A stretch of DNA of 64,000 nucleotides from an uncultured Verrucomicrobiae bacterium (GCA_963813025.1 CAWEXO010000005.1:64001-128000); one strand, 5' to 3'; shown: positions 23,422 through 35,924, numbered from the stretch's first letter. The notes: generated from the letters alone by a model not told the origin. Numbers and translations: made by a program.

Positions 23422-23485
23422 TACGGGCCAAGAACTTCCACCGTCAGCGTTTCCCACTTACTCGAGACGAAGGCCTGGATTCAAA

Positions 23486-25156
23486 TCAGGAGGGACGTTT
23501 CCGTAGTCTCCATTGCCTTTGAGCTAAGCGGCGGTGACTAACAAGTTCCCTGTTGACGCAAAGATAAATCCTCTCCTGCACCCGGCCTTCTCCGATATGT
23601 AAGTTCTTTGCTCGCTCGATGATCTTTTTCTCGGCTTTCGTCATCCGGTCGCGTTGCAATACATGTTGAGTCCAAGACGGTACCATCATTTCGACACGAA
23701 AGATGTTGAACCGGGTCAGATCTTCGTGCAGTCGCCAGCTGAACGCACCGTTTCGCAGATGAATCAGCCGCACCTGTCTCATCAATTCCATAAACTCGTC
23801 TTCGCGCACCCGATCCACTTCAAACTCATACGTGATGGCAACCGGTCCATCTTGCGGCTGAGGCAAGTTGATCAGTTTATGGGAGAAACTTGTCTGGGAC
23901 AAACTTGTCACGGATCCAGGATCGAACTCTAGCTTTTCGGTGAAATTAATCGACAGAGGAATAGCCAGAATCAAACTGATCGACAACAGGACTGCCCCTC
24001 CGATCAAGGTAGGGTGCACGCCCAAGATAGCTGCTGCCGCTCCCCAAACGACGCCGCCCAGAGCCATCGCCCCTTGGGAAACCATGATGATGGTGGCGTT
24101 CATGCGGCCTCTCGACCAGCTTGGCATCGCGCGCTGCGCTGCAACCCAGAGTTCTGACGCAGACATCGTCCACCCGATTCCGGCAGCAGCAGCAACGATC
24201 ATGAAAATGGTCTGGTCTCGGACAAATGCCATCAGGAGGTAAACGACCGCTATCACCAGATTCGCGATCACGATGAGCGTATTGGAGGAAAGACGTGCCC
24301 GGACCCAGGGTACCACAAAAATCGCTCCAAATACGGCACCCGCACCCATGGAGCTGAACAGAATGCCACAACCCGCCGCTGTAAGTTTTAGCTCCTTCAG
24401 GCCGACGACCGGGATCAGTGCCGGTATCAGTGCGATAAAAAAGGCAAATAAGATATTTCGAGCCAATACAACCTGTATGCCTGGGGCATACCGAACGTAC
24501 CGAATCGCTGTAGAAAAAGATTCAAAAAAGTTCTCTAATGGTAGCTTCGACGGTCTCTCTTTTCGCTTCCATTGTAAGATTGCAAGAATTACGACAAGAA
24601 AACAGATCGCATTCAGCGTAAACACCCAGTTCGCTCCAATCAGCGGAATCAGCATCCCGCCAATAGCAGGTCCCAGAATCCCGGAAATGTTGAGTTGCAA
24701 GCCACCCAGCGTCGCGGCCGACGGAAGTTCCTCATCTGACACTAGTTCCGGCACAATCGCCGTCCAAGCAGGAGCGTTGAAGGCAAACCCAATTCCGATT
24801 AAGAAAATGCAAATCAGAATAATGTATGGATTAAGAACGCCGAGTGAACCAAGAATTGCGAGCAGCCCTGCAGCAACGGCTAGCCACACATTCATAATCC
24901 AAAGCAATTTGCGCCTGTCGACGATGTCCGCCAAAGCTCCGGCCGGCAAAGTAAATAGAAAGAACGGTAAAGACGCGACAGTTGACATTAAGGATAAAAA
25001 CAATGCAGACGGGCCGAGCTTAAACATCACCCAGGTTGCAGCGCAGTCATGAGCTGCAACACAAGTCCCGGAGAGTACACTTGCGAACCAGAGTTTTCGA
25101 AATACCGGGTTTCGCAGAGCGGTAAAAGTCGAAGTATTTTGTAAACTCTTGCTCAT
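23486..25156 (-). CDS. MFS transporter (MFS_3/DUF894 type) with soluble C-terminal domain
   Basis: 'AGALADIVDRRKLL', about 12 TM, C-terminal 'RNGAFSWRL..D...SWTQHVLQRDR'. Confidence 0.9.
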   Translation of the reverse strand: MSKSLQNTSTFTALRNPVFRKLWFASVLSGTCVAAHDCAATWVMFKLGPSALFLSLMSTVASLPFFLFTLPAGALADIVDRRKLLWIMNVWLAVAAGLLAILGSLGVLNPYIILICIFLIGIGFAFNAPAWTAIVPELVSDEELPSAATLGGLQLNISGILGPAIGGMLIPLIGANWVFTLNAICFLVVILAILQWKRKERPSKLPLENFFESFSTAIRYVRYAPGIQVVLARNILFAFFIALIPALIPVVGLKELKLTAAGCGILFSSMGAGAVFGAIFVVPWVRARLSSNTLIVIANLVIAVVYLLMAFVRDQTIFMIVAAAAGIGWTMSASELWVAAQRAMPSWSRGRMNATIIMVSQGAMALGGVVWGAAAAILGVHPTLIGGAVLLSISLILAIPLSINFTEKLEFDPGSVTSLSQTSFSHKLINLPQPQDGPVAITYEFEVDRVREDEFMELMRQVRLIHLRNGAFSWRLHEDLTRFNIFRVEMMVPSWTQHVLQRDRMTKAEKKIIERAKNLHIGEGRVQERIYLCVNRELVSHRRLAQRQWRLRKRPS

Positions 25157-25173
25157 CCGAGCGCTTCTTTTTT

Positions 25174-25389
25174 TCAGCGGGCTTTGGCAAGAACACCGAG
25201 CTTCTGACGCTCACGTTCCGAACTTCGAAAAACCAAGATCCAGATTGAAAGCTCTCCATTGGTCCAGGCGAACAGGTTCAAAGTGACAAGACAGAGAGCC
25301 GAAAAAAACAGGGGCAACTTCTTCAAGTGGGGGAAACAAAACTTCAAAGCAGGATCTCTACCTTTATGACTGCTAGCCAGATGGGTCAA
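25174..25389 (-). pseudogene. N-terminal remnant of an ABC substrate-binding protein (MalE-like)
   Basis: Signal peptide followed by 'FAWTNGELSIW' then an abrupt end; resemblance recalled, not searched. Confidence 0.35.
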
Positions 25390-25574
25390 GCCACCGGTGC
25401 CGGCGCGGATAGAAAACTGGTCGTCGCTCAGCTTGCAGCGGCCGGGTAAAAACCGGCGGACGCTCTCATGACATCCGATTAATGGGGGTCTCTGGCAGGA
25501 GATTCCTCTTCTGGGATATTATCGCCGGATATCTGCCTACGCTTACGCTCTATTGCGTATTCGAGGGTTTCCCT

Positions 25575-25705
25575 GATTAACGTCCGCTGGGGTGATCTCG
25601 GAAACTTCAATCTCCCCCAATTCCTCAATCATGATCTCCAGGCGGTATTAAGCATCCCTAAATACGAGGCTTAGCGGGCCTTCGCCCGGTCGTTTTCCTT
25701 CTTTG
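25575..25705 (-). pseudogene. Degenerate tyrosine integrase fragment
   Basis: Reads KENDRAKAR*ASYLG.. (frameshift) YRLEIMIEELGEIEVSEITPAD, aligning by eye to KEQDRKSARYLGDMRNRLE...IHEIT of the intact integrase. Confidence 0.5.
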
Positions 25706-25809
25706 ATCGGTCAAGATCATAGTTTATCGATCAACCCTGGAACCAGGGAGGAGCGAGGGAGAATGCCCGGAGAACAGCTCTAGGACTTGAAGAACCGCTA
25801 CTGGAGAAG

Positions 25810-25864
25810 TGCCGATGGCGGGACTCGAACCCGCACGGAGCTTTCGCCCCAACGGATTTTAAGT
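25810..25864 (-). repeat. att core, duplicated 3' part of tRNA-Leu (left junction)
   Basis: TGCCGATGGCGGGACTCGAACCCGCACGGAGCTTTCGCCCCAACGGATTTTAAGT, identical to 35781-35835; identity ends just past the anticodon loop. Confidence 0.95.
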
Positions 25865-25900
25865 TCGGTAAGGATCGTTGATTCTAAAGGACTTACATTG

Positions 25901-25933
25901 ACGAGTGCCTGAAAAGTGCCACCTTTGGCACTC
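25901..25933. promoter_or_regulatory. Putative integrase arm-type sites (left)
   Basis: GAGTGCC (25903), AAGTGCCA (25914), inverted TGGCACTC (25926); same motif at 35631-35660. Confidence 0.6.
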
Positions 25934-27097
25934 ATGGGAAGCAAACCAAGGTGGCCGGCTATTCGGGAACGCGTCAACGCATCTGGAACCATTTCGTTCG
26001 TCGTGGACGGAATAATTGGCGGCGAACGCCTCAGATCCTTTCACAAAACCAAGGGCGAAGCCGAAACCAAGGCGGCGCAAATGCGAGCCAAACGCGCAAA
26101 CGAAGGGGCTACCGCTTTTGGGTTGCCGGCGCCCGATCGGGTTGACGCCGAAACCGCCCTAGGCTTGCTAAAACCGCATGGGGTTCGCCTGGAACAGGCC
26201 GCCCAGTTTTATTTGCGCCACTTGGAAGTGATCCGGCAATCGAAGACGGCCGGCGAAGCGGTGGCTGAGCTGTTGGTGTCCAAAGAACAAGACAGAAAAA
26301 GCGCACGGTACTTGGGCGATATGCGCAACCGACTCGAAACCTTTGCCAACGATAAAACATTTGCCGCCCTACCTATTCATGAGATCACCGCCCGCCAGCT
26401 CGAGGATTGGTTGCGCCGGCTGCGCGTCTCACCAATCACCCGGAACAACTTCCGCCGGCTGATCGGTGTCTTGTTTGGGTTCGCTCTCAAACGCGGGTAC
26501 GTCCTGAAAAATCCCGTCAAGAATGTTGAGATCGCAAATGTCGAGAGCATCAAACCGGCAATCTTGAGCGTCGAAGAAACCCAGGCGTTGCTTAGCTGCG
26601 CCTCTGTCGAGCTTCTGCCAAGCTTGGTTGTGGCAGTTTTCGCGGGGTTACGGCCACAATCGGAAATCTTCCGCCTGGACTGGGCATCGATCCATCTGGA
26701 CGAAAAGGAAATTGATATCGCTCAATCGAAAAACCTGGCATCGCACCGTTACGTAAAAATTTCCGATAATCTGGCCGTCTGGTTGCGCCCTCACGTCAAG
26801 ACGAAAGGCCGCGTTGGCCTTCGCCATGAACCTTACTATCGGCATTTGCAAGCCGCTCGCGCGAAAGCTGCGGAAAGCTTGGAATCACAAGGGATCGATG
26901 CAACGACTCTGCGCGCCTGGGGTTCTGATATCTGCCGGCATACCTATGCGAGTTTTCACTACGGAATGTGGAAAAGTGCCGCCGCAACAGCCGAACAGCT
27001 CGGGCACCGCGGCAACCTGCAAATGCTTCACAGATTTTACCGAGCCCGCGTCAGGGAATCTGCCGCGCGGGGCTTTTGGGCGCTTTTGCCTTCTTGA
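25934..27097 (+). CDS. Tyrosine recombinase / phage integrase
   Basis: 'FAGLRPQSEI', 'ICRHTYAS', 'LGH', C-terminal Y (RFY); adjacent to att; alternative GTG start at 25916. Confidence 0.93.
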   Translation: MGSKPRWPAIRERVNASGTISFVVDGIIGGERLRSFHKTKGEAETKAAQMRAKRANEGATAFGLPAPDRVDAETALGLLKPHGVRLEQAAQFYLRHLEVIRQSKTAGEAVAELLVSKEQDRKSARYLGDMRNRLETFANDKTFAALPIHEITARQLEDWLRRLRVSPITRNNFRRLIGVLFGFALKRGYVLKNPVKNVEIANVESIKPAILSVEETQALLSCASVELLPSLVVAVFAGLRPQSEIFRLDWASIHLDEKEIDIAQSKNLASHRYVKISDNLAVWLRPHVKTKGRVGLRHEPYYRHLQAARAKAAESLESQGIDATTLRAWGSDICRHTYASFHYGMWKSAAATAEQLGHRGNLQMLHRFYRARVRESAARGFWALLPS

Positions 27098-27677
27098 TCG
27101 CCGAGGTTCTGTCCTGCCGATCCTGATACCACTTCGAAAGAATTGCGCGGTTCGTGGCTTCCTTCCCGGCCCGGTGTGACGCAAACCAGAGTTCTTTTTT
27201 CCAGTCAACCTCGAGCTTGTTCAGGATCTTCAGCACACCTTCACCAAGCTCGAACAGTTCGCCGATTTTGTGTAGTTCAAACCCGATTTCTCGTTTGACG
27301 TTCCAGAATCGGTTTGAATCCGTGGCAAGGCTAGCGATGAGCAGCACTTCAATGTTAAACGCGAAATTATCGGCCAGTCTTCTAACGAAAGCTTCGTCAA
27401 CTGCCCGCGTTTTTTCCTTCATCCTTTCGCGAACGTCGGCCGTCAACGGTTCGCCGAATGCGTTCACAAGTTCGTTCCGTTCTTCAGACAGAAAGAAATC
27501 AAAGCCAGTTTCAAACACGACCCTGTTTTCTAACTTGTGACTCATTTTCAATCGCCCGTTTTCGATCATCCTGATTGATATGGGCTTACATCCGACGAGC
27601 CGAGCAAGTTTTGCTTGGGATAAGCCGAGGATCTTCCTGGCACGGCGCAACGGATGTTCGCGGGTTCGCCTAGGCAT
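27051..27677 (-). CDS. XRE-family HTH repressor
   Basis: 'LRRARKILGLSQAKLARLVGCKPISIRMIENGR' HTH_3 pattern; divergent from a small HTH gene. Confidence 0.82.
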   Translation of the reverse strand: MPRRTREHPLRRARKILGLSQAKLARLVGCKPISIRMIENGRLKMSHKLENRVVFETGFDFFLSEERNELVNAFGEPLTADVRERMKEKTRAVDEAFVRRLADNFAFNIEVLLIASLATDSNRFWNVKREIGFELHKIGELFELGEGVLKILNKLEVDWKKELWFASHRAGKEATNRAILSKWYQDRQDRTSAIKKAKAPKSPARQIP

Positions 27678-27759
27678 GCGTTACCACTATCTATAAATCG
27701 ATGGGTAACAACCGGTTTCCAGTTAACCGCACGGGTTATCACTGGTAACGTTTCCGGCG
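27678..27759. promoter_or_regulatory. Divergent promoter/operator region of the element
   Basis: GTTACC/GGTAAC-like hexamers at 27680, 27704, 27714, 27722, 27734, 27744. Confidence 0.5.
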
Positions 27760-27957
27760 ATGAACCATCAATGGTTGTTCCATCTTCTCAGCGAAGAAGA
27801 ACTAGCAAAAGCGCTAGGCATGAGCGTTTCCGGCGTGCGAAAGCTTCGATACAAAAAACTGCTTCCTTATGTTCGAATCGGCGCACGAACCGTTCGGTTC
27901 GACTTGTCGCGGGTTAAGGAAGCTCTCGAGCGGCTAGAAATCAAAGAGGTTTCCTAA
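27760..27957 (+). CDS. Excisionase/AlpA-like HTH protein
   Basis: 65 aa, 'LLSEEELAKALGMSVSGVRKLR...LPYVRIGARTVRFD' HTH_17 pattern. Confidence 0.85.
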   Translation: MNHQWLFHLLSEEELAKALGMSVSGVRKLRYKKLLPYVRIGARTVRFDLSRVKEALERLEIKEVS

Positions 27958-27960
27958 GCC

Positions 27961-28341
27961 ATGAAAAGGCGAGTCAAGAAAAAGGCGGCCCAGGTAACCA
28001 GCCCGGGCGCGCCCGAAGAAAGCACGAACGGGGCAAGGTATCACAACGCCACCGAAGCTCAATTCGCACTTGCCCGCGCGCAAGTCGACGAGCTGCGCCG
28101 CCGCGGTATTTGGCTGGGCGGCCCCTGGATGAGCATCCTCGACATCACGTCTCGAGCAAACAAGTGCGCGCGCAATACCGCGCTTCTCTACAAGCGGCTA
28201 ACCCGGACAAAGGCCGATGATCCGGCCTACAGTGGCGTCTTGAAAATGGCAGATGGCCAAACTTTTTGGGTCTCGGCCTGGCCACGGGTTGTTAACAGCC
28301 GCCCAGTTGTTGAAATTCGGCTACTACCCAAAACGGAATGA
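27961..28341 (+). CDS. Hypothetical protein, possible ssDNA-binding C-terminal domain
   Basis: 'DDPAYSGVLKMADGQTFWVSAW' recalls the PDY.G...G..YW.SAW pattern of small phage DUF736-like proteins. Confidence 0.5.
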   Translation: MKRRVKKKAAQVTSPGAPEESTNGARYHNATEAQFALARAQVDELRRRGIWLGGPWMSILDITSRANKCARNTALLYKRLTRTKADDPAYSGVLKMADGQTFWVSAWPRVVNSRPVVEIRLLPKTE

Positions 28342-28347
28342 GACGGC

Positions 28348-29349
28348 ATGAACCAGTTTCCCCCGTTTCTAAATGCACAGCTCGCCGCTTGCCCCTCGGC
28401 CGGTTCCGGCGTTCACCGTTGGCTTTATTCCACTGCGCGGAATTTGCACGCTCACCTGTCGCCGGAATCGATTTGCCAACTACTCAAACAAAAAAGCCGC
28501 ACGTGCGGCCGACGAGTTTCGGAAAAAGAGATTCAAGCGGCGGTTGAATCCTCGGCTCGCACCGCCTGGCAACCCAAGAATGTACCGACGGCGGTATGTT
28601 TCGAATCCGTGGACCTGATTTCAGGTTCACGGATTCCAGCACCTGCCTGGCCAGAGCCGAACCTAGACGCTATCCGGGAACACGTCGCCAAGGGTTTCGG
28701 GCTGTACGATCTCTGGGAAGCGAGTCCCGTCCGCTGGGACGACGAGCAAAGCCATGCCGAAGACATCGCCGACGGGACTTTTCCGGGCGATCCGCTTTTG
28801 TGCTGTGGCAAAGCCAAAGACACTTTTGCTACCCGGCGCCGCGAATGCTGGCGCGGGCACCTCGCGCGGCTTCCGCTCATTTGCCCGAACCCGATGCTCG
28901 ATTATAAAGGGCGAACTCAAGACGGCAAACTTAGTGAGCATAGCAAAGCAGCTACTGCCGCGCGGATCTATCTGGTAATTGAATTCGATTTTTCCGAATT
29001 CGCGCGGGACGGCGTAACCGAGTCAATCTGGGCACCGCTGGTGCGCGAATGGCGGGCCGACTCGATCACCGTTGCCGACGCTTGCGCTGCCTTGCACCGC
29101 TATCTAGCAACGCGTTTGCCTTTGGTTTTGGCTACTCATTCCGGCAACAAAAGTTTACACGGCTGGTATCAGGCGTTCAATCGAACCGAAAGCGCGCTGC
29201 GGGCTTTTATGGAAGGCGCGGTTTTTCTCGGCGGCGATCGGGCAAACTGGCTGCGCTCACAATTTTGTCGAGTTCCAGATGGCTTACGGGACGATGGCCG
29301 CCGGCAAACCTGTTTTTACTTCGATCCGGAAAAGGCGGTGCGCGTATGA
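28348..29349 (+). CDS. AEP-superfamily primase-polymerase
   Basis: 'YLVIEFD', 'HSGNKSLHGWY', 'FCRVPDG' motifs; ATGA overlap with the helicase. Confidence 0.72.
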   Translation: MNQFPPFLNAQLAACPSAGSGVHRWLYSTARNLHAHLSPESICQLLKQKSRTCGRRVSEKEIQAAVESSARTAWQPKNVPTAVCFESVDLISGSRIPAPAWPEPNLDAIREHVAKGFGLYDLWEASPVRWDDEQSHAEDIADGTFPGDPLLCCGKAKDTFATRRRECWRGHLARLPLICPNPMLDYKGRTQDGKLSEHSKAATAARIYLVIEFDFSEFARDGVTESIWAPLVREWRADSITVADACAALHRYLATRLPLVLATHSGNKSLHGWYQAFNRTESALRAFMEGAVFLGGDRANWLRSQFCRVPDGLRDDGRRQTCFYFDPEKAVRV

Positions 29350-30407
29350 GGCCAAACCCGGCATACGTTCGCCCGGCCGAGGACGAAGAAACAGCGGGCA
29401 ACAACGGTGAGACGCCAAAGGTGTTTGTCGAGTTGGCTACCCCTTCTGATATTTTGGCCTATACCCCGCCGGCTGAAAACGTCTTAGTCGGCGATTGTCA
29501 CATTGTTCGGGGCAGTGTTTTTGCGATTGCTGGGCCGCCTGGTGTTGGCAAGAGCCGGGGCGCAACCGCGCTCGCCGAAGCCGGTGCCACCAAATACAGC
29601 TGGTTCGGGATGCCGGTTTTGCGGACGTTTAAAACCCTGATCGTTCAAGCCGAGAATAGTTTGCTGCGGTTGCGACAGGAATTGACTGAGATTGATGAAC
29701 CACGCCTCGCGGACAGCTTGCGGATTACCCCGCCGCCGCCTTTCGGGCTTTGCTTCTGGCGGCACGAATTCCGCGATCAGCTCAAACGCCAAGCCGACGA
29801 GTTTGGCCCCGATGCGGTTATCCTTGATCCATGGAACCAGATCGCCCGAGACGATCGGGCCAAAGATTACTTAGAGTCCTTCGAGCTTTGCCGCGCGGTG
29901 TTCCCTTCCGGCGATCAAGGGGTAGCGCTAGGCATTATCGCGCACACGAGAAAACCGCTGCCCGGCGAGCGAGCCAATGGCCGCGCACTGCTGCATTTGG
30001 TAACCGGCAGCTATGTCCTGGGCAGCGTCCCGCGCTGCATCTTTGTCATGCAGCACGCCACCGACGACACCACTGAGGATCGCGTCGTTTTTACGTGCTG
30101 CAAAAACAACGATGGCGAGCTGGGGCCACGCTCCGCCTGGGTTCGTCAAAACGGCCTTTTTGAGCCCGTCCAGAACTTCGACTGGAACGGCTGGGAAAAG
30201 GGCGAAAAAGCGGGACTTTTTACGCTTTATGACGTGCCCACTTTGTTCGTGCAAAGCGAAGAAGCCGTGGCACGCACTATTTTGGCCCAGAGAATCACCG
30301 AAAAAGGGGTATCCAAACGCACCGCTTACCGCCGGATCGAAGAAGCTCAAAAATCGGGCTTGATCAAGTTCCATAAAGGAAAGGACGGATATGTACTTTC
30401 CCAGTAG
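29346..30407 (+). CDS. AAA_25/RepA-like replicative helicase
   Basis: Walker A GPPGVGKS, 'IVQAEN', Walker B 'VILDP', 'AHTRK', C-terminal HTH-like segment. Confidence 0.82.
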   Translation: MRPNPAYVRPAEDEETAGNNGETPKVFVELATPSDILAYTPPAENVLVGDCHIVRGSVFAIAGPPGVGKSRGATALAEAGATKYSWFGMPVLRTFKTLIVQAENSLLRLRQELTEIDEPRLADSLRITPPPPFGLCFWRHEFRDQLKRQADEFGPDAVILDPWNQIARDDRAKDYLESFELCRAVFPSGDQGVALGIIAHTRKPLPGERANGRALLHLVTGSYVLGSVPRCIFVMQHATDDTTEDRVVFTCCKNNDGELGPRSAWVRQNGLFEPVQNFDWNGWEKGEKAGLFTLYDVPTLFVQSEEAVARTILAQRITEKGVSKRTAYRRIEEAQKSGLIKFHKGKDGYVLSQ

Positions 30408-30545
30408 TGCAAGATTTGTGCAAGGCACGTGCCATGGCACAACGCTGGCACAAACTCCGATTTGTGCCAATGCCAAAGCCCCTAAGGGATTGTGCCATGG
30501 CACAAACGCGGCACAAACGCCGACTTTTTACGTAATAAGCACCGC
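30408..30545. promoter_or_regulatory. Putative iteron-containing replication origin
   Basis: Eight GGCAC/GTGCC pentamers and a perfect 16-bp palindrome TTGTGCCATGGCACAA (30490-30505), directly after the helicase stop. Confidence 0.65.
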
Positions 30546-30601
30546 GTCGAAACGGCGCGAAAAACAACCCCGATCCGCGGCGGTTTTCTGCGGGAACAAA
30601 A

Positions 30602-30946
30602 ATGACACAACAAACAACGAAAGTTAAATCCCCAACACGTCTTAGCCAGTCTGATTTTGGCAAAAGGCTCTGGCTACTTGCCAGCGGCGCAAACTGGTTC
30701 GGGCGTGTTCACATGACAGAACTCGATCAAGCCCAGCTCTACGCCGAGATCTGTGATTCGCTCAGTTGCCTGGCAAAGGCGATCATCGCCAAAGATACCG
30801 ACTCAGATGAGCTGCTTGGCTTGATCGCTGACGAGATGGCTGAGTATGCACGCCAACAGCAATGCCGGCTCGATCGGTTAGAGCAAGAACAAGATTGGTT
30901 CGTTGATCAGGGGGAAGCCAACACCGAACAGAAGCCCAAACTCTAG
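30602..30946 (+). CDS. Hypothetical element protein (acidic, helical)
   Basis: 114-aa ORF co-oriented with the element's operon. Confidence 0.6.
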   Translation: MTQQTTKVKSPTRLSQSDFGKRLWLLASGANWFGRVHMTELDQAQLYAEICDSLSCLAKAIIAKDTDSDELLGLIADEMAEYARQQQCRLDRLEQEQDWFVDQGEANTEQKPKL

Positions 30947-30955
30947 CCGGCATTT

Positions 30956-31396
30956 ATGGACGAATTCTCTGATAACGATATCACCTGGCCGCAATTCCGG
31001 GAACGGTACTGCGCCGGGAATGCCGATCTCACGAACCTGGTTGACACTTTCGAGGCGGCCGGGATCGAACTGCGGCGGTACGCCAATCGGATGGAACTAG
31101 GGCGCCCCCACGGCCTCTTGACGGTAACGAACGGAATCAATGATTACCTGATTGCCGGCGACTTCGTAACCGACGGGCTCAGCCTTTTTGTATCGAACCG
31201 CCCGGGGAAACCTACGTGCCAGTCCATCTGGTGCGTCTCAAACCGGGACAGTCGAACTGGCAAGGGATCGTTGAGAGTATCGCGGCAGATAGCCTGCGCT
31301 AGAAACCAAACCCGCCCCGAGGAAAACGAAAATAAACCCCGGGGCGGACAACCCGTTTCCCCTAAAGCACGCCTGAAATTTAGTTTTTGTCACTAA
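30956..31396 (+). CDS. Hypothetical element protein
   Basis: Starts 9 nt after the previous ORF; C-terminal half looks less protein-like. Confidence 0.45.
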   Translation: MDEFSDNDITWPQFRERYCAGNADLTNLVDTFEAAGIELRRYANRMELGRPHGLLTVTNGINDYLIAGDFVTDGLSLFVSNRPGKPTCQSIWCVSNRDSRTGKGSLRVSRQIACARNQTRPEENENKPRGGQPVSPKARLKFSFCH

Positions 31397-31434
31397 AAAG
31401 TAAAGGCGTACAATCTGTCAACCTACCTTAACCT

Positions 31435-32547
31435 ATGCCAGTTTCCGCTGAGAATTTTTTTTCCACCACAACCTTGATCGACGGCTTTAAGGAAATCCCG
31501 CCTAGCGAAAGCTTTCTGAACTCAAGCTTTTTCGGCGAAGTTAAATTTTTTGATGGCCGGTTTTGTGCCGTCGATACGAAACGCGCCCGCCGAATTCTGG
31601 CGCCCGTCGCCAAGCGCGGCCAGCTTGGGCGCGCCATTATCCGCCCACCGGTGGCAACGTCATTTTACGACGTTCCGATCATCGCACCAATCCGCGTAAG
31701 TACCGTCGCCGATCTCGATGAACGCGGATTTGGTGAGCACATTTTCCAGACTCGTTCCGCTACTGATCGCCTAGCCGAACAAGCGGTCGACGACTACGCG
31801 GAATTGGAAGCCGCAATCAGTCGCCGGATCGAGCTGATGACGTCGCAGCTTTTGCTTACCGGCACAATCAGTTATGTCCTTGATGATGGCGTAACGGTTG
31901 AAACTTTGGAATATGGGAAACCGACAGTGACACTGACGGTTGTCCCTTGGGATAGCCCCGACGCCGATCCGATCGCGGATCTTGCCCGCGCACACAACCT
32001 GATCGTCGCTCAAACCGGGTTTCATGCTGATCTCGCCATCTTCGGGGAAAAGACTTTGGAAGCATTTTTGAGCAACCGGAAAGTCCGCGAAACATTAAAC
32101 TTGCTTCAGTTTAAGCTGGGCACGATCGAGCCGCGGCCAGCAGAAGGCAACGCGCAATGGATCGGCCGCCTTCTGCGCCCGAGTGTCGATCTGTACGATT
32201 ACGCTGAAACCTACGATGACGAGCTAACCGGGGCCGTTACCCCAATGGTGCCTGATGATGTCGTTATCTTTGGCGCTTCAGAAGCGGGCGGCCGCACCGC
32301 CTACGGTTCGATCAATCAAATGGAAACCGATGGCCAAGTTCGCAGCTATCACGATTTGCGGGTGGTCCCGCTGTATCTCTCTACGCCCAACGAACAGGAA
32401 AGAAAGTTTCGTTTGGCCTCGCGGCCCTGTCTTATTCCAAGCGATCTTTTGAGCTGGGGCATTATCAAACCGCTGGCCTCATCGGAAGAGCCCGAAGAGT
32501 CAGCAACCCCGGAAGAATCCGAAACCCGCACACAAAACCTGAAATAA
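31435..32547 (+). CDS. Major capsid protein, lambda gpE family (Phage_cap_E)
   Basis: 'FSTTTL...FL..SFF', 'RRILAP', 'ISRRIELMTSQLLLTG.I', 'WDSPDADPIADL', 'YAETY.DE', 'LASRP.LIP'. Confidence 0.88.
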   Translation: MPVSAENFFSTTTLIDGFKEIPPSESFLNSSFFGEVKFFDGRFCAVDTKRARRILAPVAKRGQLGRAIIRPPVATSFYDVPIIAPIRVSTVADLDERGFGEHIFQTRSATDRLAEQAVDDYAELEAAISRRIELMTSQLLLTGTISYVLDDGVTVETLEYGKPTVTLTVVPWDSPDADPIADLARAHNLIVAQTGFHADLAIFGEKTLEAFLSNRKVRETLNLLQFKLGTIEPRPAEGNAQWIGRLLRPSVDLYDYAETYDDELTGAVTPMVPDDVVIFGASEAGGRTAYGSINQMETDGQVRSYHDLRVVPLYLSTPNEQERKFRLASRPCLIPSDLLSWGIIKPLASSEEPEESATPEESETRTQNLK

Positions 32548-32554
32548 CCCCGTT

Positions 32555-32926
32555 ATGCCACAAGGTATCACCTTTACTTCCCCTACCCGTGCTGCCGACT
32601 TGCACGGGCCCGAGGCCGCTGGCCAAGTTACCCACAACCTTATAATCAAAGGTAACCAGGGCATGTTATCCCCCGGCACCTTGATCAAAGCCGACGGCGC
32701 AAAAGCTGCTACTGCGGCCGAGACGTTCGGTATTCTTGGCTTCAGCACTGACACCGATCAAGGTGACGTAGCCGTTACCGTTTACCTGGCCGGCGATTTC
32801 AACCGCTCAATCGTCGAAGCTGCCAACGAAAGACAGTTGACGCCGGCGGATCTAGAGACGCTGCGCAACAAAGGTATCTTCATCATTCGTTCGATTCCGA
32901 GCTTCGTTCCGCCGCCGGCAGCTTGA
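32555..32926 (+). CDS. Head decoration protein, lambda gpD family
   Basis: 'GTLI', 'FGIL', 'DVAVTVYLAGDFN', 'LRNKGIFI'; adjacent to the capsid gene. Confidence 0.82.
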   Translation: MPQGITFTSPTRAADLHGPEAAGQVTHNLIIKGNQGMLSPGTLIKADGAKAATAAETFGILGFSTDTDQGDVAVTVYLAGDFNRSIVEAANERQLTPADLETLRNKGIFIIRSIPSFVPPPAA

Positions 32927-32930
32927 TGCT

Positions 32931-33083
32931 ATGTCGGGTGTACCAAAGCCAAAGCATGTTGCGGTGCCAAGCGATGAAGCGGTGCGTCTTCTATTGAAGC
33001 GCACTAACTCAGCCGGCATCAACGCACTGCGCCGGGCGATCACCGCACGAAAAAAAATTCCCCCCGGGCAAGGTTCTTTTTGA
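32931..33083 (+). CDS. 50-aa basic hypothetical protein (absent from ORF track)
   Basis: ATG 4 nt after the gpD-like stop; MSGVPKPKHVAVPSDEAVRLLLKRTNSAGINALRRAITARKKIPPGQGSF. Confidence 0.4.
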   Translation: MSGVPKPKHVAVPSDEAVRLLLKRTNSAGINALRRAITARKKIPPGQGSF

Positions 33084-33150
33084 AAAAATTTCGTTGGACG
33101 GGTGCTGGCGATCCTTCCATTCGCGCAATTAATGAGACGGTTTTGAGGTG
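33071..33150 (+). promoter_or_regulatory. Putative lambda-like cos packaging site
   Basis: AGGTTCT + 23 nt ending ACG + GGTGCTGGCGATCCT versus lambda GGGTCCT + 23 nt ending ACG + GGGCGGCGACCT; directly upstream of terS. Confidence 0.6.
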
Positions 33151-33161
33151 AGTCCTCTCTC

Positions 33162-33719
33162 GTGATGGCTGAGGCGGAAAAGCTGGCTTCGGTTTACGTC
33201 ACCTCGGGTGAGCTGGGGGAAATGCTGCGATTACCGGAAGCCGAAGTGCGCAAGCTCGGCCGGCAAAACATTTTCCCGCGCATACCGAATCCGAAAAAAA
33301 GTGACAGTTTCCTGTATCCGGTAGCTGGATGCGTTGGTGCCTTCATCGACTCGTTCAAAAGCGAGTTGAGGCGCAACCAGGAAGGCTACGGCCGGGAAAA
33401 GATGCGCACCGAGAAAGCCCGGGGCGATATGCTCGAATTAGAGCACGCTTTGCGGCTGGGAAAATTACACGACGCCGAGCGCTGCCGGCAAGAACAGCTT
33501 GAGACTCATTCAATGGTGCGCCGCCGGTTGTTAATCCTGCCGCATCGCGCTGCCCGACGATTACCAGGTGATCCGATCGCTAATGAGTCGGTCTTGTCGC
33601 AAGAGCTTGGCGACTGTTTGAGTGCGTTAGCGGCCGGCGGGAAGGTGGCAGAGAACGGCCATGCAAAAACCAAAAAGCTCACCAAAACCCACGGCGTACG
33701 TACAAGCCGAAGTCTTTAG
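33162..33719 (+). CDS. Terminase small subunit (Nu1-like)
   Basis: N-terminal wHTH 'VTSGELGEML.LPEAEVRKL', coiled coil 'EKMRTEKARGDMLELEHALRLGKL', 'RRRLLILPHR'; overlaps terL. Confidence 0.78.
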   Translation: MMAEAEKLASVYVTSGELGEMLRLPEAEVRKLGRQNIFPRIPNPKKSDSFLYPVAGCVGAFIDSFKSELRRNQEGYGREKMRTEKARGDMLELEHALRLGKLHDAERCRQEQLETHSMVRRRLLILPHRAARRLPGDPIANESVLSQELGDCLSALAAGGKVAENGHAKTKKLTKTHGVRTSRSL

Positions 33720-35628
33720 GCTCTACACACCGCCCGAACCGATGGATATCGTCCTTTGGTGCGAGCGGTTCAGGCGCTTAAGCTCCGAGGGCTCGAGCGA
33801 GCCTGGCCCTTACCGCATGTCACGCGCGCCGTTCTTCGCTGAGCCGATGCGCGCCTGTGTCGATCCGCGAACCCGGGAAGTAGTCTGTATGGGCGCTTCT
33901 CAGATCTCGAAAACCGAAAGCCTTATCCTGAACGTTCTGGCGTACAAGATCGCCAATGATCCCGCCCCGAGTTTGCTGGTTACGAGCACACTGCCGGCGT
34001 GCCAGTCGCTCAGCCATGACAGGTTCGAACCGATGTGTCGGGATTGCGCGCCTTTGCGCGGCCTGGTTGCCGAACGCGGCGGCCCTAACACCGAGGGCGG
34101 TTCAACGATCTACCGGAAAAGCTTTAAGGGCGGCCATTTGACGCTGGTTGGTTCGAACTCGGCGAGCGGCCTAGCCCGGATGCCGATCCGTGATCTGTAT
34201 CTCACCGAAGTTGATCGGTTCAGCACAGACGCCGGCAACGAGGAAGGCGATCCGGTTTCCTTGGCGCGGATTCGGACAAGCACTTTTCATGATGCCAAGG
34301 TAATCATGGAATCATCGCCCACCGTTGCCGGCCGATCCCGGATCGAGGCGGCTTATCTGAACAGCACGCAAGAGCATTGGTACAATGCTTGTCCGAGCTG
34401 CGGCTTTTTCCAGATCATCGCGCTAGGCCGAATGGATTTCGCTACCGCAACTCATCGGTGCGAGCATTGCGGCGAAGCAGCTGGGCAGAGTGCCTGGCAA
34501 GCGAGTCCGGGCGAATGGCGGGCGCATGGCGAACATCCGACGATCCGCGGGTTTCATATTCCGTGCTGGCCGTCGCCTTTGATCTCTTGGCAAACGGTGA
34601 TCGAAGAATTCCGGGTTGCGAGCCGGCTGGCGGACGAAGGCGATTCTTCGTGGCTCAGAGTTATCGTCAATACCAGGTTCGCCGAATGCTTCGTCGAAGC
34701 CGAGGCTCGCATGAACGAAGACGATCTACTTGGACGCCGGGAAGAATACGAAGCCGAGATCCCAGATGGCGTGCTGATCTTACTGGCGAGTGTCGATAGC
34801 CAAGACGATCGGCTCTGTTATCAGGTTTCGGGGATCGGCCGCGGAAGAGAGGCTTGGTTGATCGAATACGGAACGATCTGGGGCGATTTGGCGACGAACG
34901 CTGCCCCGATGTACCAAGAGCTCGAAGAACGCGTTCTGGCGCGGCTCTGGCGCTTTGGCGATGGCCAATTGATCAAGGTGCGTCGGTGTGCGCAAGACGC
35001 GATGGGCCATCATTCCAGTACCGTTTATACTGAGGTGAAGAAACGTGCCCGGCAGATGATCGCCTTCCGTGGCCGGCCCGTTGGGATCGCCAAGTCACTC
35101 TACACACTCACACATTCAAGCAACGAAGGCGCCCCTGTCCTGGTCGGCACTGTTGATCTGGCCAAGGATTTGTTATCGGGCTTGCTCAAGGTGCCTGCTG
35201 CGGGGCGGGGTTACCTTCATATCCCGGCAGAAGAAGCGCGCGGGTTCGGCGAAGCGTGGGCCGCTGAGATGATGGCCGAACGCAAAGAAATCAAGTATCG
35301 GAACGGCCAGCGGATCGCGGTATGGACAAAGCGAGCTGGCAGCAGAAACGAAGCATGGGATCTGATGGTGATGACGTTAATCCTGGCCGAAAGCTTGCAA
35401 CTCAATATGGAACAGAGAACGCCGGACTATTACAGCGAGGAAAACAAAACACCAACAGGGCAGCGCCGCTGGGGCGTCCAAAATGCACCGAGCGGGTTCG
35501 GGCAACCGCAAGATCTGATCGTTCGAAGCCGGGTAGTGCCCAGGAACCTAGACGAACCTGATCTTGTTCTACCCGGCGCACCCGTAAAACCGCGCTATGG
35601 CGTCCAGAACAAACCGATGAATTGGTAA
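33661..35628 (+). CDS. Terminase large subunit, lambda gpA family
   Basis: 'SSEPGPY', 'ASQISKTE', 'EEGDPVSLA..RT.TF', 'SSPT..G.SRIE', CxxC pairs, 'VDSQDDRL', 'RNEAWD'. Confidence 0.92.
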   Translation: MQKPKSSPKPTAYVQAEVFRLYTPPEPMDIVLWCERFRRLSSEGSSEPGPYRMSRAPFFAEPMRACVDPRTREVVCMGASQISKTESLILNVLAYKIANDPAPSLLVTSTLPACQSLSHDRFEPMCRDCAPLRGLVAERGGPNTEGGSTIYRKSFKGGHLTLVGSNSASGLARMPIRDLYLTEVDRFSTDAGNEEGDPVSLARIRTSTFHDAKVIMESSPTVAGRSRIEAAYLNSTQEHWYNACPSCGFFQIIALGRMDFATATHRCEHCGEAAGQSAWQASPGEWRAHGEHPTIRGFHIPCWPSPLISWQTVIEEFRVASRLADEGDSSWLRVIVNTRFAECFVEAEARMNEDDLLGRREEYEAEIPDGVLILLASVDSQDDRLCYQVSGIGRGREAWLIEYGTIWGDLATNAAPMYQELEERVLARLWRFGDGQLIKVRRCAQDAMGHHSSTVYTEVKKRARQMIAFRGRPVGIAKSLYTLTHSSNEGAPVLVGTVDLAKDLLSGLLKVPAAGRGYLHIPAEEARGFGEAWAAEMMAERKEIKYRNGQRIAVWTKRAGSRNEAWDLMVMTLILAESLQLNMEQRTPDYYSEENKTPTGQRRWGVQNAPSGFGQPQDLIVRSRVVPRNLDEPDLVLPGAPVKPRYGVQNKPMNW

Positions 35629-35630
35629 AT

Positions 35631-35660
35631 CGAGTGCCAAACGAGTGCCAGAAAGTGACA
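35631..35660. promoter_or_regulatory. Putative integrase arm-type sites (right)
   Basis: CGAGTGCCA (35631), CGAGTGCCA (35642), AAGTGACA (35653), 11-bp period. Confidence 0.6.
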
Positions 35661-35780
35661 GGATTTTGGGAAATAATGGGGTATTTCGGGTTTTAATGGG
35701 TTAGAACAGGTAACGATGTTAACTGCTCTTTAGTCCCTCGGGAATCGGCTCTAGGACTTGATGTTCAGCCACCAGAGCCT

Positions 35781-35865
35781 TGCCGATGGCGGGACTCGAA
35801 CCCGCACGGAGCTTTCGCCCCAACGGATTTTAAGTCCGTTGCGTCTGCCATTCCGCCACATCGGC
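35781..35865 (-). tRNA. tRNA-Leu (UAA), 85 nt, CCA not encoded; 3' part forms the right att core
   Basis: GCCGATG/CATCGGC acceptor stem, anticodon loop CTTAAAA, long variable arm, GGTTCGAGTCC T-arm. Confidence 0.96.
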
Positions 35866-35924
35866 ACACTGGTCTGAAAAGGAACCTGTGCACCGAAATC
35901 ACGCAAGGACAAAAAGTGGTTGGC

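Follow-up and report, generated by a model that had tools for sequence, protein, structure and literature searches.

A probable helper-dependent satellite with a capsid gene and a complete terminase but no recognisable portal in an uncultured Verrucomicrobiae bacterium

The window analysed here is a 64,000-nucleotide stretch of the genome of an uncultured Verrucomicrobiae bacterium (GCA_963813025.1 CAWEXO010000005.1:64001-128000, corresponding to C5:64001-128000 of host assembly G000, which comprises 4.4 Mb in 16 contigs and is 80% complete). It contains a 9.97-kb element at the 3' end of a tRNA-Leu(taa) gene, which is probably a helper-dependent satellite of the phage-inducible chromosomal island (PICI) type with a hybrid late module. 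Judged by its genes, the element appears to join the layout of a classical PICI to a known type of capsid-decoration pair and to the terS-terL end of a capsid-forming PICI (cf-PICI). Its unusual feature is the complete terminase without a portal, the capsid-decoration pair being already known in PICIs.

Boundaries, late genes and terminase lineage

The element is bounded by an exact 55-bp direct repeat, the two attachment (att) cores at 25810-25864 and 35781-35835, which are spaced 9,971 bp apart and are both intact, as an earlier reading of the window (the sequence-only reading) had claimed. A 28-nt piece of this core occurs exactly twice in the window, against 0 occurrences expected from 100 shuffles. 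The right copy forms the 3' portion of an intact tRNA-Leu(taa) gene, and this tRNA was the sole match in an Rfam scan of the element. The 9,916 bp between the cores are 92% coding with accepted genes, hold no frameshifts and have the same base composition as the flanks. All genes lie on the plus strand except that of the repressor, and the gene order from int to terL described earlier was confirmed by Pfam and PHROGs. The att cores and the late genes, including the candidate cohesive-end (cos) region, are as follows (positions of the window).

25810-25864: left att core, a 55-bp exact copy of the 3' part of tRNA-Leu
35781-35835: right att core, within the intact tRNA-Leu(taa) gene (35780-35866, minus strand)
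31435-32547, plus strand: major capsid protein of the lambda gpE family (PF03864, E 3e-30, profile positions 1-318 of 329; phrog_29, E 2.3e-42; PDB matches 3bjq and 3bqw)
32555-32926, plus strand: probable head-decoration protein, gpD-like (phrog_49, E 1.8e-4; PF02924 (HDPD), E 1.3e-3, below cut-off)
32927-33161: candidate cos region, a 235-bp gap with A/T tracts upstream of terS, placed by position only
33162-33719, plus strand: TerS (phrog_57, E 8.5e-14)
33661-35628, plus strand: full-length TerL of the GpA type (PF05876, E 9.1e-59, for the ATPase; PF20454, E 1.2e-61, for the nuclease; phrog_15, E 3e-172)

The ATPase and nuclease domains of the GpA-type TerL were matched end to end, and TerS is 32-33% identical to the TerS proteins of two other islands in the same genome. 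Searches with the element proteins in Pfam (lenient thresholds included), PHROGs and NCBIfam matched no family of portal, protease, scaffold, connector, tail or lysis proteins, in agreement with the sequence-only reading. Prohead protease, head-tail adaptor, connector and HNH nuclease were each without a match in the element, and Pfam and PHROGs gave no match to the Sid, Psu or Delta families. The distance from the terL stop to the right att core is only 152 bp. Between that stop, which ends at 35628, and the first right-arm repeat (GAGTGCCA, starting at 35632) there is a gap of 3 nt rather than the 2 nt first given. Among the earlier gene labels, those of the capsid, TerS, TerL, integrase, repressor, excisionase and helicase held up, whereas 'ssb-like' comes down to one 39-residue match, 'primase' is an assignment by inference and 'gpD-like' draws on a sub-threshold Pfam match together with phrog_49.

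The late genes of the element run capsid-decoration-terS-terL-att, which departs from the lambda-like order of terS-terL-(W)-portal-protease-decoration-capsid. In distant relatives of the capsid protein (24-30% identity, from two verrucomicrobial genomes and an IMG/VR contig), terL comes first and the capsid gene lies ~5 kb further on. Since the capsid and decoration genes precede terS-terL in the element, deletion alone from a lambda-like phage order cannot yield it.

The TerL protein also belongs to a lineage of islands. The host genome holds five GpA TerL genes, one of them frameshifted (on C1), and four of the five lie within ~5.5 kb of a tRNA gene. The other tRNA-linked TerL islands with mapped direct repeats measure 18.5 kb (tRNA-Met), 17.7 kb (tRNA-Tyr) and 16.3 kb (tRNA-Arg), and no recognisable portal was found among the 93 open reading frames (ORFs) scanned in the TerL islands of this genome. 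In a midpoint-rooted TerL tree of 30 rows, the 10 rows with an island-type tail formed one clade with 100/100 support. This clade comprises the TerL of the element, its four closest metagenomic homologues, three island TerLs of the host genome, one from the sister species G587 and one from G527 (the P0129-P0132 and G527 rows are known from the TerL alone; the tree omits the frameshifted C1 copy, the fragments L064, L066, L069 and L071, and the duplicate L068). A lambda-family portal (PF05136; largest downstream frame) followed TerL at 5 of the 8 loci tested outside the clade and at neither of the 2 clade loci tested. The five portal-linked TerLs come from the same order of bacteria, and all of them fall outside the island clade.

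In members of the island clade, a variable linker, which often holds a second [YWF]G[VA] copy, leads to the terminal motif [RK][YW]G[VA]QN.P..W; the element TerL ends in RYGVQNKPMNW. The two [YW]G[VA] motifs lie within the last ~60 residues. The motif is present in 5 of the 120 TerL homologues listed, all of them the closest and the query itself included, and also in the island TerLs of the host genome and of G587; a basic tail is found in 87 of the 120. The portal-linked TerLs, which belong to a sister clade without the island motif, finish with a basic stretch and then a short segment that contains aromatic residues and terminates in or near W. In lambda, the portal of the prohead is bound by the very C-terminal end of gpA. 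Provided that this analogy applies, the island motif may mark the peptide by which these TerLs dock onto helper portals of one shared kind.

In the sister species G587 the tRNA site is empty. The right flank and the tRNA gene are shared (83% identity), the outer left flank is 87% identical, and just 968 bp lie between the matched flanks. Together with the gene order, the other TerLs of the host genome and the phylogeny, the empty site argues against the element being a simple deletion product of a prophage. The refutation that the sequence-only reading had itself named, a full prophage reduced by a unique deletion, is thus not borne out, as the capsid-decoration pair precedes terS-terL and TerL falls in the island clade rather than with portal-linked homologues. 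A broader form of the same idea, that of a decayed, immobile prophage remnant that retained a few head and packaging genes by chance, could appeal to the gene set being a single instance in the genomes searched, to related capsid islands of the genus g257 that are full of insertion sequences with several capsid genes broken, and to the one frameshifted copy among the five host TerL genes. The element itself, however, has all genes intact, identical att cores and an empty counterpart site in G587; its order cannot be reached from a phage order by deletion alone; its TerL and capsid belong to island clades that long branches separate from phage homologues; and its replication module belongs to an island family found in 55 of 401 genomes. 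We regard a remnant as very improbable.

One of the other terminase islands carries additional genes. The 18.5-kb tRNA-Met island with direct repeats (L015, G000:C1:31300-49900) encodes an integrase, a helix-turn-helix (HTH) protein, AAA_24, DUF669 and DUF3987 proteins, a 971-residue alpha-amylase/solute-binding fusion that is apparent cargo, the frameshifted GpA TerL and, adjoining the tRNA, a ClpP-like SDH protease.

Capsid relatives and comparison with known satellites

The capsid protein is rare, with six proteins at 46-51% identity among 5.8 billion clusters. Two samples of 401 genomes each, one of the phylum and one of the order, gave capsid matches in 3 and 6 genomes, respectively; in the order sample the five besides the host all belong to the genus g257, whose genomes are often multicopy for such matches. 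A tree of 16 capsid rows placed the element capsid and its metagenomic relatives as sister to the g257 island capsids (Shimodaira-Hasegawa-like approximate likelihood ratio test, SH-aLRT, 84), apart from verrucomicrobial phage capsids and from all E. coli capsids. All nine g257 loci fetched contain the capsid gene and two contain a primase-like homologue; within 10 kb, TerL was matched at none of the nine. Insertion sequences abound in these islands and several of their capsid genes are broken; the idea that they are capsid-only satellites was not adopted for this reason.

The decoration gene keeps company with the capsid gene in these relatives. Decoration homologues lie directly downstream of the capsid gene in 5 of the 6 g257 islands tested and in L006, a 3-kb metagenome contig that carries a helicase-like end with a winged-helix tail, a ~1-kb spacer, a frameshifted capsid gene, a decoration gene whose product is 42% identical to that of the element, and a 91-residue ORF. 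A homologue in L037, 28% identical to the element protein, matches phrog_49 at 9e-11. Profile comparison with gpD-type proteins of E. coli was not supportive (probability 6.5%), a PDB sequence search gave no relevant match, and a structure prediction from a 3-row alignment had a mean predicted local distance difference test (pLDDT) score of 37. Scans for close relatives in their genomic context gave one partial 40% match in genome contigs and two contigs of 3.0 kb and 1.5 kb in metagenomes; viral-contig scans gave nothing, or merely two phage contigs at 27% identity.

The capsid gene comes before the decoration gene in the PICI EcCICFT073, in the element, in L006 and in five g257 islands, and the decoration gene comes first in the three lambdoid prophages of CFT073 (L048-L051 being the CFT073 loci compared). 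In this small sample, capsid-then-decoration is a possible order signature of island-borne pairs. A 23-kb tRNA-Ser island with a capsid-decoration pair (L046, G686:C6) also encodes, at L046:3263-8362, a 1,699-residue protein with kinase, nSTAND1 NTPase and WD40 parts, which may be defence cargo.

EcCICFT073 is reported to encode c1499, annotated as a putative capsid protein, and c1500, a head-decoration protein, but no TerL, the helper terminase acting on its cos site and its DNA being packaged at phage size; deletion of c1499 or c1500 left transfer almost unchanged (PMC6092414). Of 29 reference Gram-negative PICIs, 21 are reported to have a capsid gene, which is described as not required for transfer (PMC10111431). 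The statement of the sequence-only reading that typical PICIs carry at most TerS and capsid-size factors does not survive these reports. Like the element, EcCICFT073 is ~10-11 kb long, has an integrase at its left end, a small HTH regulator, primase and replication genes and a downstream origin, carries a gpE-family capsid gene followed by a decoration gene, and has no portal, tail or lysis genes; its order in RefSeq NC_004431 is int, HTH, small ORFs, primase, single-stranded DNA-binding protein (SSB), PerC, capsid, decoration and three hypotheticals. The two differ in host phylum and in that EcCICFT073 depends on the helper terminase, whereas the element has its own TerS and a full GpA TerL. 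The shared capsid-decoration layout is probably convergent, because the element capsid shares only 22% identity with c1499 across 187 residues, the two decoration proteins could not be aligned, and the 16-row tree puts the capsid of the E. coli PICI with those of E. coli prophages.

These reports bear directly on what the capsid gene of the element does. Its capsid and decoration proteins might co-assemble or interfere with the helper capsid (size redirection like that by SaPIbov5 Ccm) or be dispensable, with multimers of the element packaged into helper-size heads by its own terminase. The near-normal transfer of the EcCICFT073 deletion mutants, with DNA at phage size, and the commonness of non-essential capsid genes in Gram-negative PICIs both favour this, as do the lack of a scaffold, protease or portal gene in the element and the orphan status of the two ORFs upstream of its capsid gene. 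Against this reading, the capsid and decoration genes are intact here and are kept paired in 5 of 6 g257 islands and in L006, which suggests selection, and investment in a full terminase plausibly goes with control of the container. We consider such a role possible but on the unlikely side.

Measured against described satellite types, the element falls between two of them in gene content, as the sequence-only reading had proposed. With classical PICIs it shares a small island with an integrase and att repeats, an HTH protein, replication genes with a downstream origin, and the lack of tail, holin and lysis genes. Classical PICIs use the large terminase of the helper and have at most their own TerS or Rpp, whereas the element encodes a full-length GpA TerL. 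SatelliteFinder is described as forbidding tail, holin and lysis genes in a PICI and as calling a cf-PICI at 9 to 11 of 11 core components (PMC10085698). The cf-PICIs (EcCIEDL933) are reported to encode their own portal, maturation protease, head-tail adaptor, connector, HNH, TerS and TerL; in proteobacterial cf-PICIs the capsid genes are said to come first and hnh-terS-terL last, with a satellite TerL clade apart from that of phages (10.1101/2022.09.08.507074). The element likewise has its own capsid, TerS and TerL, the capsid-first and terS-terL-last order, a separate TerL clade and no tail or lysis genes. It differs from cf-PICIs in that portal, protease, adaptor, connector and HNH, all present there, are all missing here (0/5), and in its GpA-type (lambda-type) terminase without HNH.

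The C8 (tRNA-Arg) and C13 (tRNA-Tyr) islands of the same genome resemble the element in their direct repeats, TerS, same-clade TerL (42-43% identity), tail motif and lack of a portal, but they are 16-18 kb long, have a replication module with a family-A DNA polymerase and carry no capsid or decoration gene. P4-like satellites are integrative elements of ~10-12 kb with a cos site, their own primase-helicase and a decoration function, Psu; P4 is not known to encode a capsid protein or a terminase. In the main text of open-access papers we found no satellite described with a capsid and a large terminase but no portal, and no account of satellites in Verrucomicrobiota, the one paper that contains both of the latter terms being about gut prophages.

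Integration and replication genes

The left half of the element is of PICI type, as originally described, with an HTH_17/excisionase protein, a primase-like protein next to an AAA_25 helicase, and iterons. Its features, together with the arm-type repeats and the two ORFs upstream of the capsid gene, are as follows.

25768-25809: stretch just outside the left core, 42 nt, 28/42 (67%) identical to the inner right end of the element (35739-35780)
25904-25933: left-arm repeats with a GTGCC core (GAGTGCC, AGTGCCA and an inverted TGGCACTC), read from the sequence
25916-27097, plus strand: tyrosine integrase (phrog_1, E 2.7e-27; Phage_int_M and Phage_integrase domains)
27051-27677, minus strand: divergent HTH_3 (Cro/CI-type) repressor (PF01381, E 2.5e-6; phrog_3, phrog_8)
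27760-27957, plus strand: HTH_17/excisionase-family protein, a putative Xis or AlpA-like activator (PF12728, E 2.9e-8; TIGR01764, E 1.5e-6; phrog_66)
27961-28341, plus strand: 126-residue protein with coding-like codon-position composition and a weak SSB match in PHROGs (39 residues, E 8e-4)
28348-29349, plus strand: presumed primase-like protein of 333 residues, its family assigned by homologues and not by a library match
29346-30407 (likely), plus strand: AAA_25 (DnaB/RepA-like) helicase with a C-terminal winged-helix tail (PF13481, E 4.6e-11; phrog_6012, phrog_239)
30421-30540: putative origin with two copies of the palindrome GTGCCATGGCAC, two of GGCACAAAC and then an AT-rich stretch
30602-30946, plus strand: acidic orphan of 114 residues with coding-like composition
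30956-31396, plus strand: 146-residue ORF, coding-like in its N-terminal half and doubtful in its C-terminal part
35632-35650, plus strand: right-arm repeats, two direct copies of GAGTGCCA 11 nt apart

Arm-type repeats with a common GTGCC core thus lie just inside both att cores, and those of the left arm are putative Int/Xis arm sites. The integrase is 39% identical to that of the C13 terminase island of the same genome. The 42-nt stretch outside the left core has no counterpart further out, the next 67 nt being at chance-level identity to the element end (17/67), and the sequence downstream of the tRNA in G587 resembles neither 25768-25809 nor 35739-35780. This stretch may reflect an attP that mimics the region downstream of the tRNA, or may be what an older, related element left behind at this tRNA. 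The left flank of the element is a host gene for an MFS_3 transporter, and the right flank holds genes for FlgN, a sigma factor and a radical-SAM enzyme. The syntenic site of G587 lacks both that transporter gene and the ~650 bp between it and the left att core (window positions 23433-25800).

The 333-residue protein is the largest unassigned ORF, and the sequence-only reading had allowed that unknown ORFs might supply a cognate head module. It gave no match in Pfam, PHROGs or NCBIfam and no relevant PDB relative by sequence-profile search. It has 416 homologues with identities of up to 59%, and a CHC2 primase zinc finger is present in 4 of the 120 listed. Its homologues, which occur in 55 of 401 genomes of the order and often in several copies per genome, align with conserved ExD and SxH motifs, which we take to be primase-like. 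In the element and in the C15 island of the same genome, the gene lies directly upstream of that for an AAA_25 helicase. A hidden portal was rejected for this protein on the grounds of its replication-module family, its 416 homologues and its helicase neighbour. The helicase start was set at 29346 from the translation and overlaps the stop of the 333-residue gene. The location of 30421-30540 downstream of the helicase suggests that it is the replication origin.

The C15 locus (L110, G000:C15:47800-50000) encodes a third primase-like copy (54% identity) followed by the AAA_25 helicase, and no recognisable phage late genes were found within 15 kb of it. A degraded island (L111, G000:C4:122000-135000) has a frameshifted integrase, a 32%-identical primase-like homologue and a truncated AAA_25 helicase, and also holds a TMP_3 tape-measure gene adjoining a DDE_3 transposase; in this island a replication module like that of the element is joined to a different late module.

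For the 114-residue ORF, no homologue but itself was found among 1.84 billion representatives. Its best protein-atlas score was 0.86, which is a lead only, and complex prediction of the capsid protein with this ORF as a candidate scaffold was uninformative (score 0.00). The 146-residue ORF had no usable protein-atlas match, and its structure prediction from a single sequence had a mean pLDDT of 37. A promoter-like TTGTCA-16-TACAAT lies at 31387-31414, 20 nt before the capsid gene; the counts of promoters and terminators in the scan were at chance level.

Packaging, the helper and implications

It is reasonable to infer that the element packages its own DNA by means of its own terminase onto a borrowed portal. 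Upon infection by a helper or its induction, the element would excise and replicate from its own origin into concatemers. Its TerS-TerL holoenzyme would recognise and cut a satellite-specific cos, probably in the 235-bp gap before terS, and the C-terminal peptide specific to this TerL lineage would serve to dock TerL onto the helper's portal. Around this portal, the capsid and decoration proteins would either form the shell or co-assemble into it. Head completion, tail and lysis would come from the helper, which need not be lambda-like. The role of the capsid is the least certain step. That the capsid and decoration proteins build the shell, as opposed to co-assembling with helper proteins or being dispensable, is a tentative proposal that we would not yet call probable.

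Several observations weigh against a PICI-type satellite working in this way. Capsid assembly is described as normally nucleated on the cognate portal, with the two co-evolving (preprint), and the EcCICFT073 deletions cited above barely affected transfer (PMC6092414). The synteny that the sequence-only reading had proposed to look for was not recovered, as the genomes searched (the 401-genome phylum and order samples) yielded no second element with the complete gene set, and capsid and TerL matches never shared a contig outside the host genome. The closest metagenomic relatives (TerL 70% and capsid 46-51% identity) are known from proteins alone, on contigs of at most 12.8 kb (P0005, 10.8 kb; P0004, 12.8 kb; P0129, which encodes the 70%-identical TerL, 7.4 kb), and the match lists for the capsid, primase-like protein and TerL held no equal-sized contigs that would point to co-location. 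In the host genome, at its 80% completeness, no lambda, HK97 or SPP1 portal family and no PF10145 tape measure was matched, and none of the 43 genomes searched from the host family yielded a lambda-family portal.

These last results leave the lambda-like helper of the sequence-only reading without support. Elsewhere in the order, in other families, lambda-family portals do adjoin GpA TerLs. A virulent phage, or a phage whose portal falls outside the families searched, is as likely a helper as a lambda-like prophage. The single HK97-type capsid gene of the host genome lies beside a TMP_3 tape measure and an AAA_25 helicase, in a region that looks like another partial element rather than a full prophage. 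This region (L054 and L018, G000:C5:317000-342000, minus strand, outside the window) encodes Endonuclease VII, a 704-residue TMP_3 tape measure, the HK97-family capsid, a 685-residue AAA_25 protein, a toxin-antitoxin-like pair, an insertion sequence, an island-clade TerL with TerS, and a 411-residue ORF. It may be a single composite 25-kb element with capsid, tape measure and terminase but no portal.

The abundance of terminase islands in a genome with no detectable portal-bearing prophage, five of them in all, could also be read differently. Satellites are reported to interfere with the packaging of their helpers (PMC6092414; 10.1101/2022.09.08.507074), and the element might be an integrative element that is not transmitted in particles and uses a decoy capsid and a rogue terminase to sabotage phages by abortive interference. 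Its excision and replication apparatus, origin, TerS and gap at the cos position, however, only make sense for the packaging of its own DNA, and PADLOC matched no defence system in it. Sabotage is in our view highly improbable as an explanation.

Taken as a helper-dependent satellite, the element may have a wider context. Possibly, though this is a speculative and rather unlikely extension, the island-clade TerLs mark an undescribed lineage of portal-less verrucomicrobial satellites, each with its own GpA motor and a docking peptide for a non-lambda portal; the element alone would add a shell, and the helper might be virulent. If so, a satellite-specific capsid would be built around a stolen portal and filled by the satellite's own terminase, with only portal, head completion, tail and lysis coming from the helper. 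Any such claim is tempered by the capsid-decoration pair being already known in PICIs, and by the element being a single instance known from sequence alone. Satellites can be sorted by what they steal: classical PICIs take the whole head and the motor, and cf-PICIs take only tails. If a portal-less satellite has its own shell and motor, these two can evidently work with a foreign portal, at an interface usually thought to be tightly co-evolved. The conserved tail motif of TerL offers a concrete handle for finding that helper portal, and the element would extend satellite biology to soil Verrucomicrobiota.

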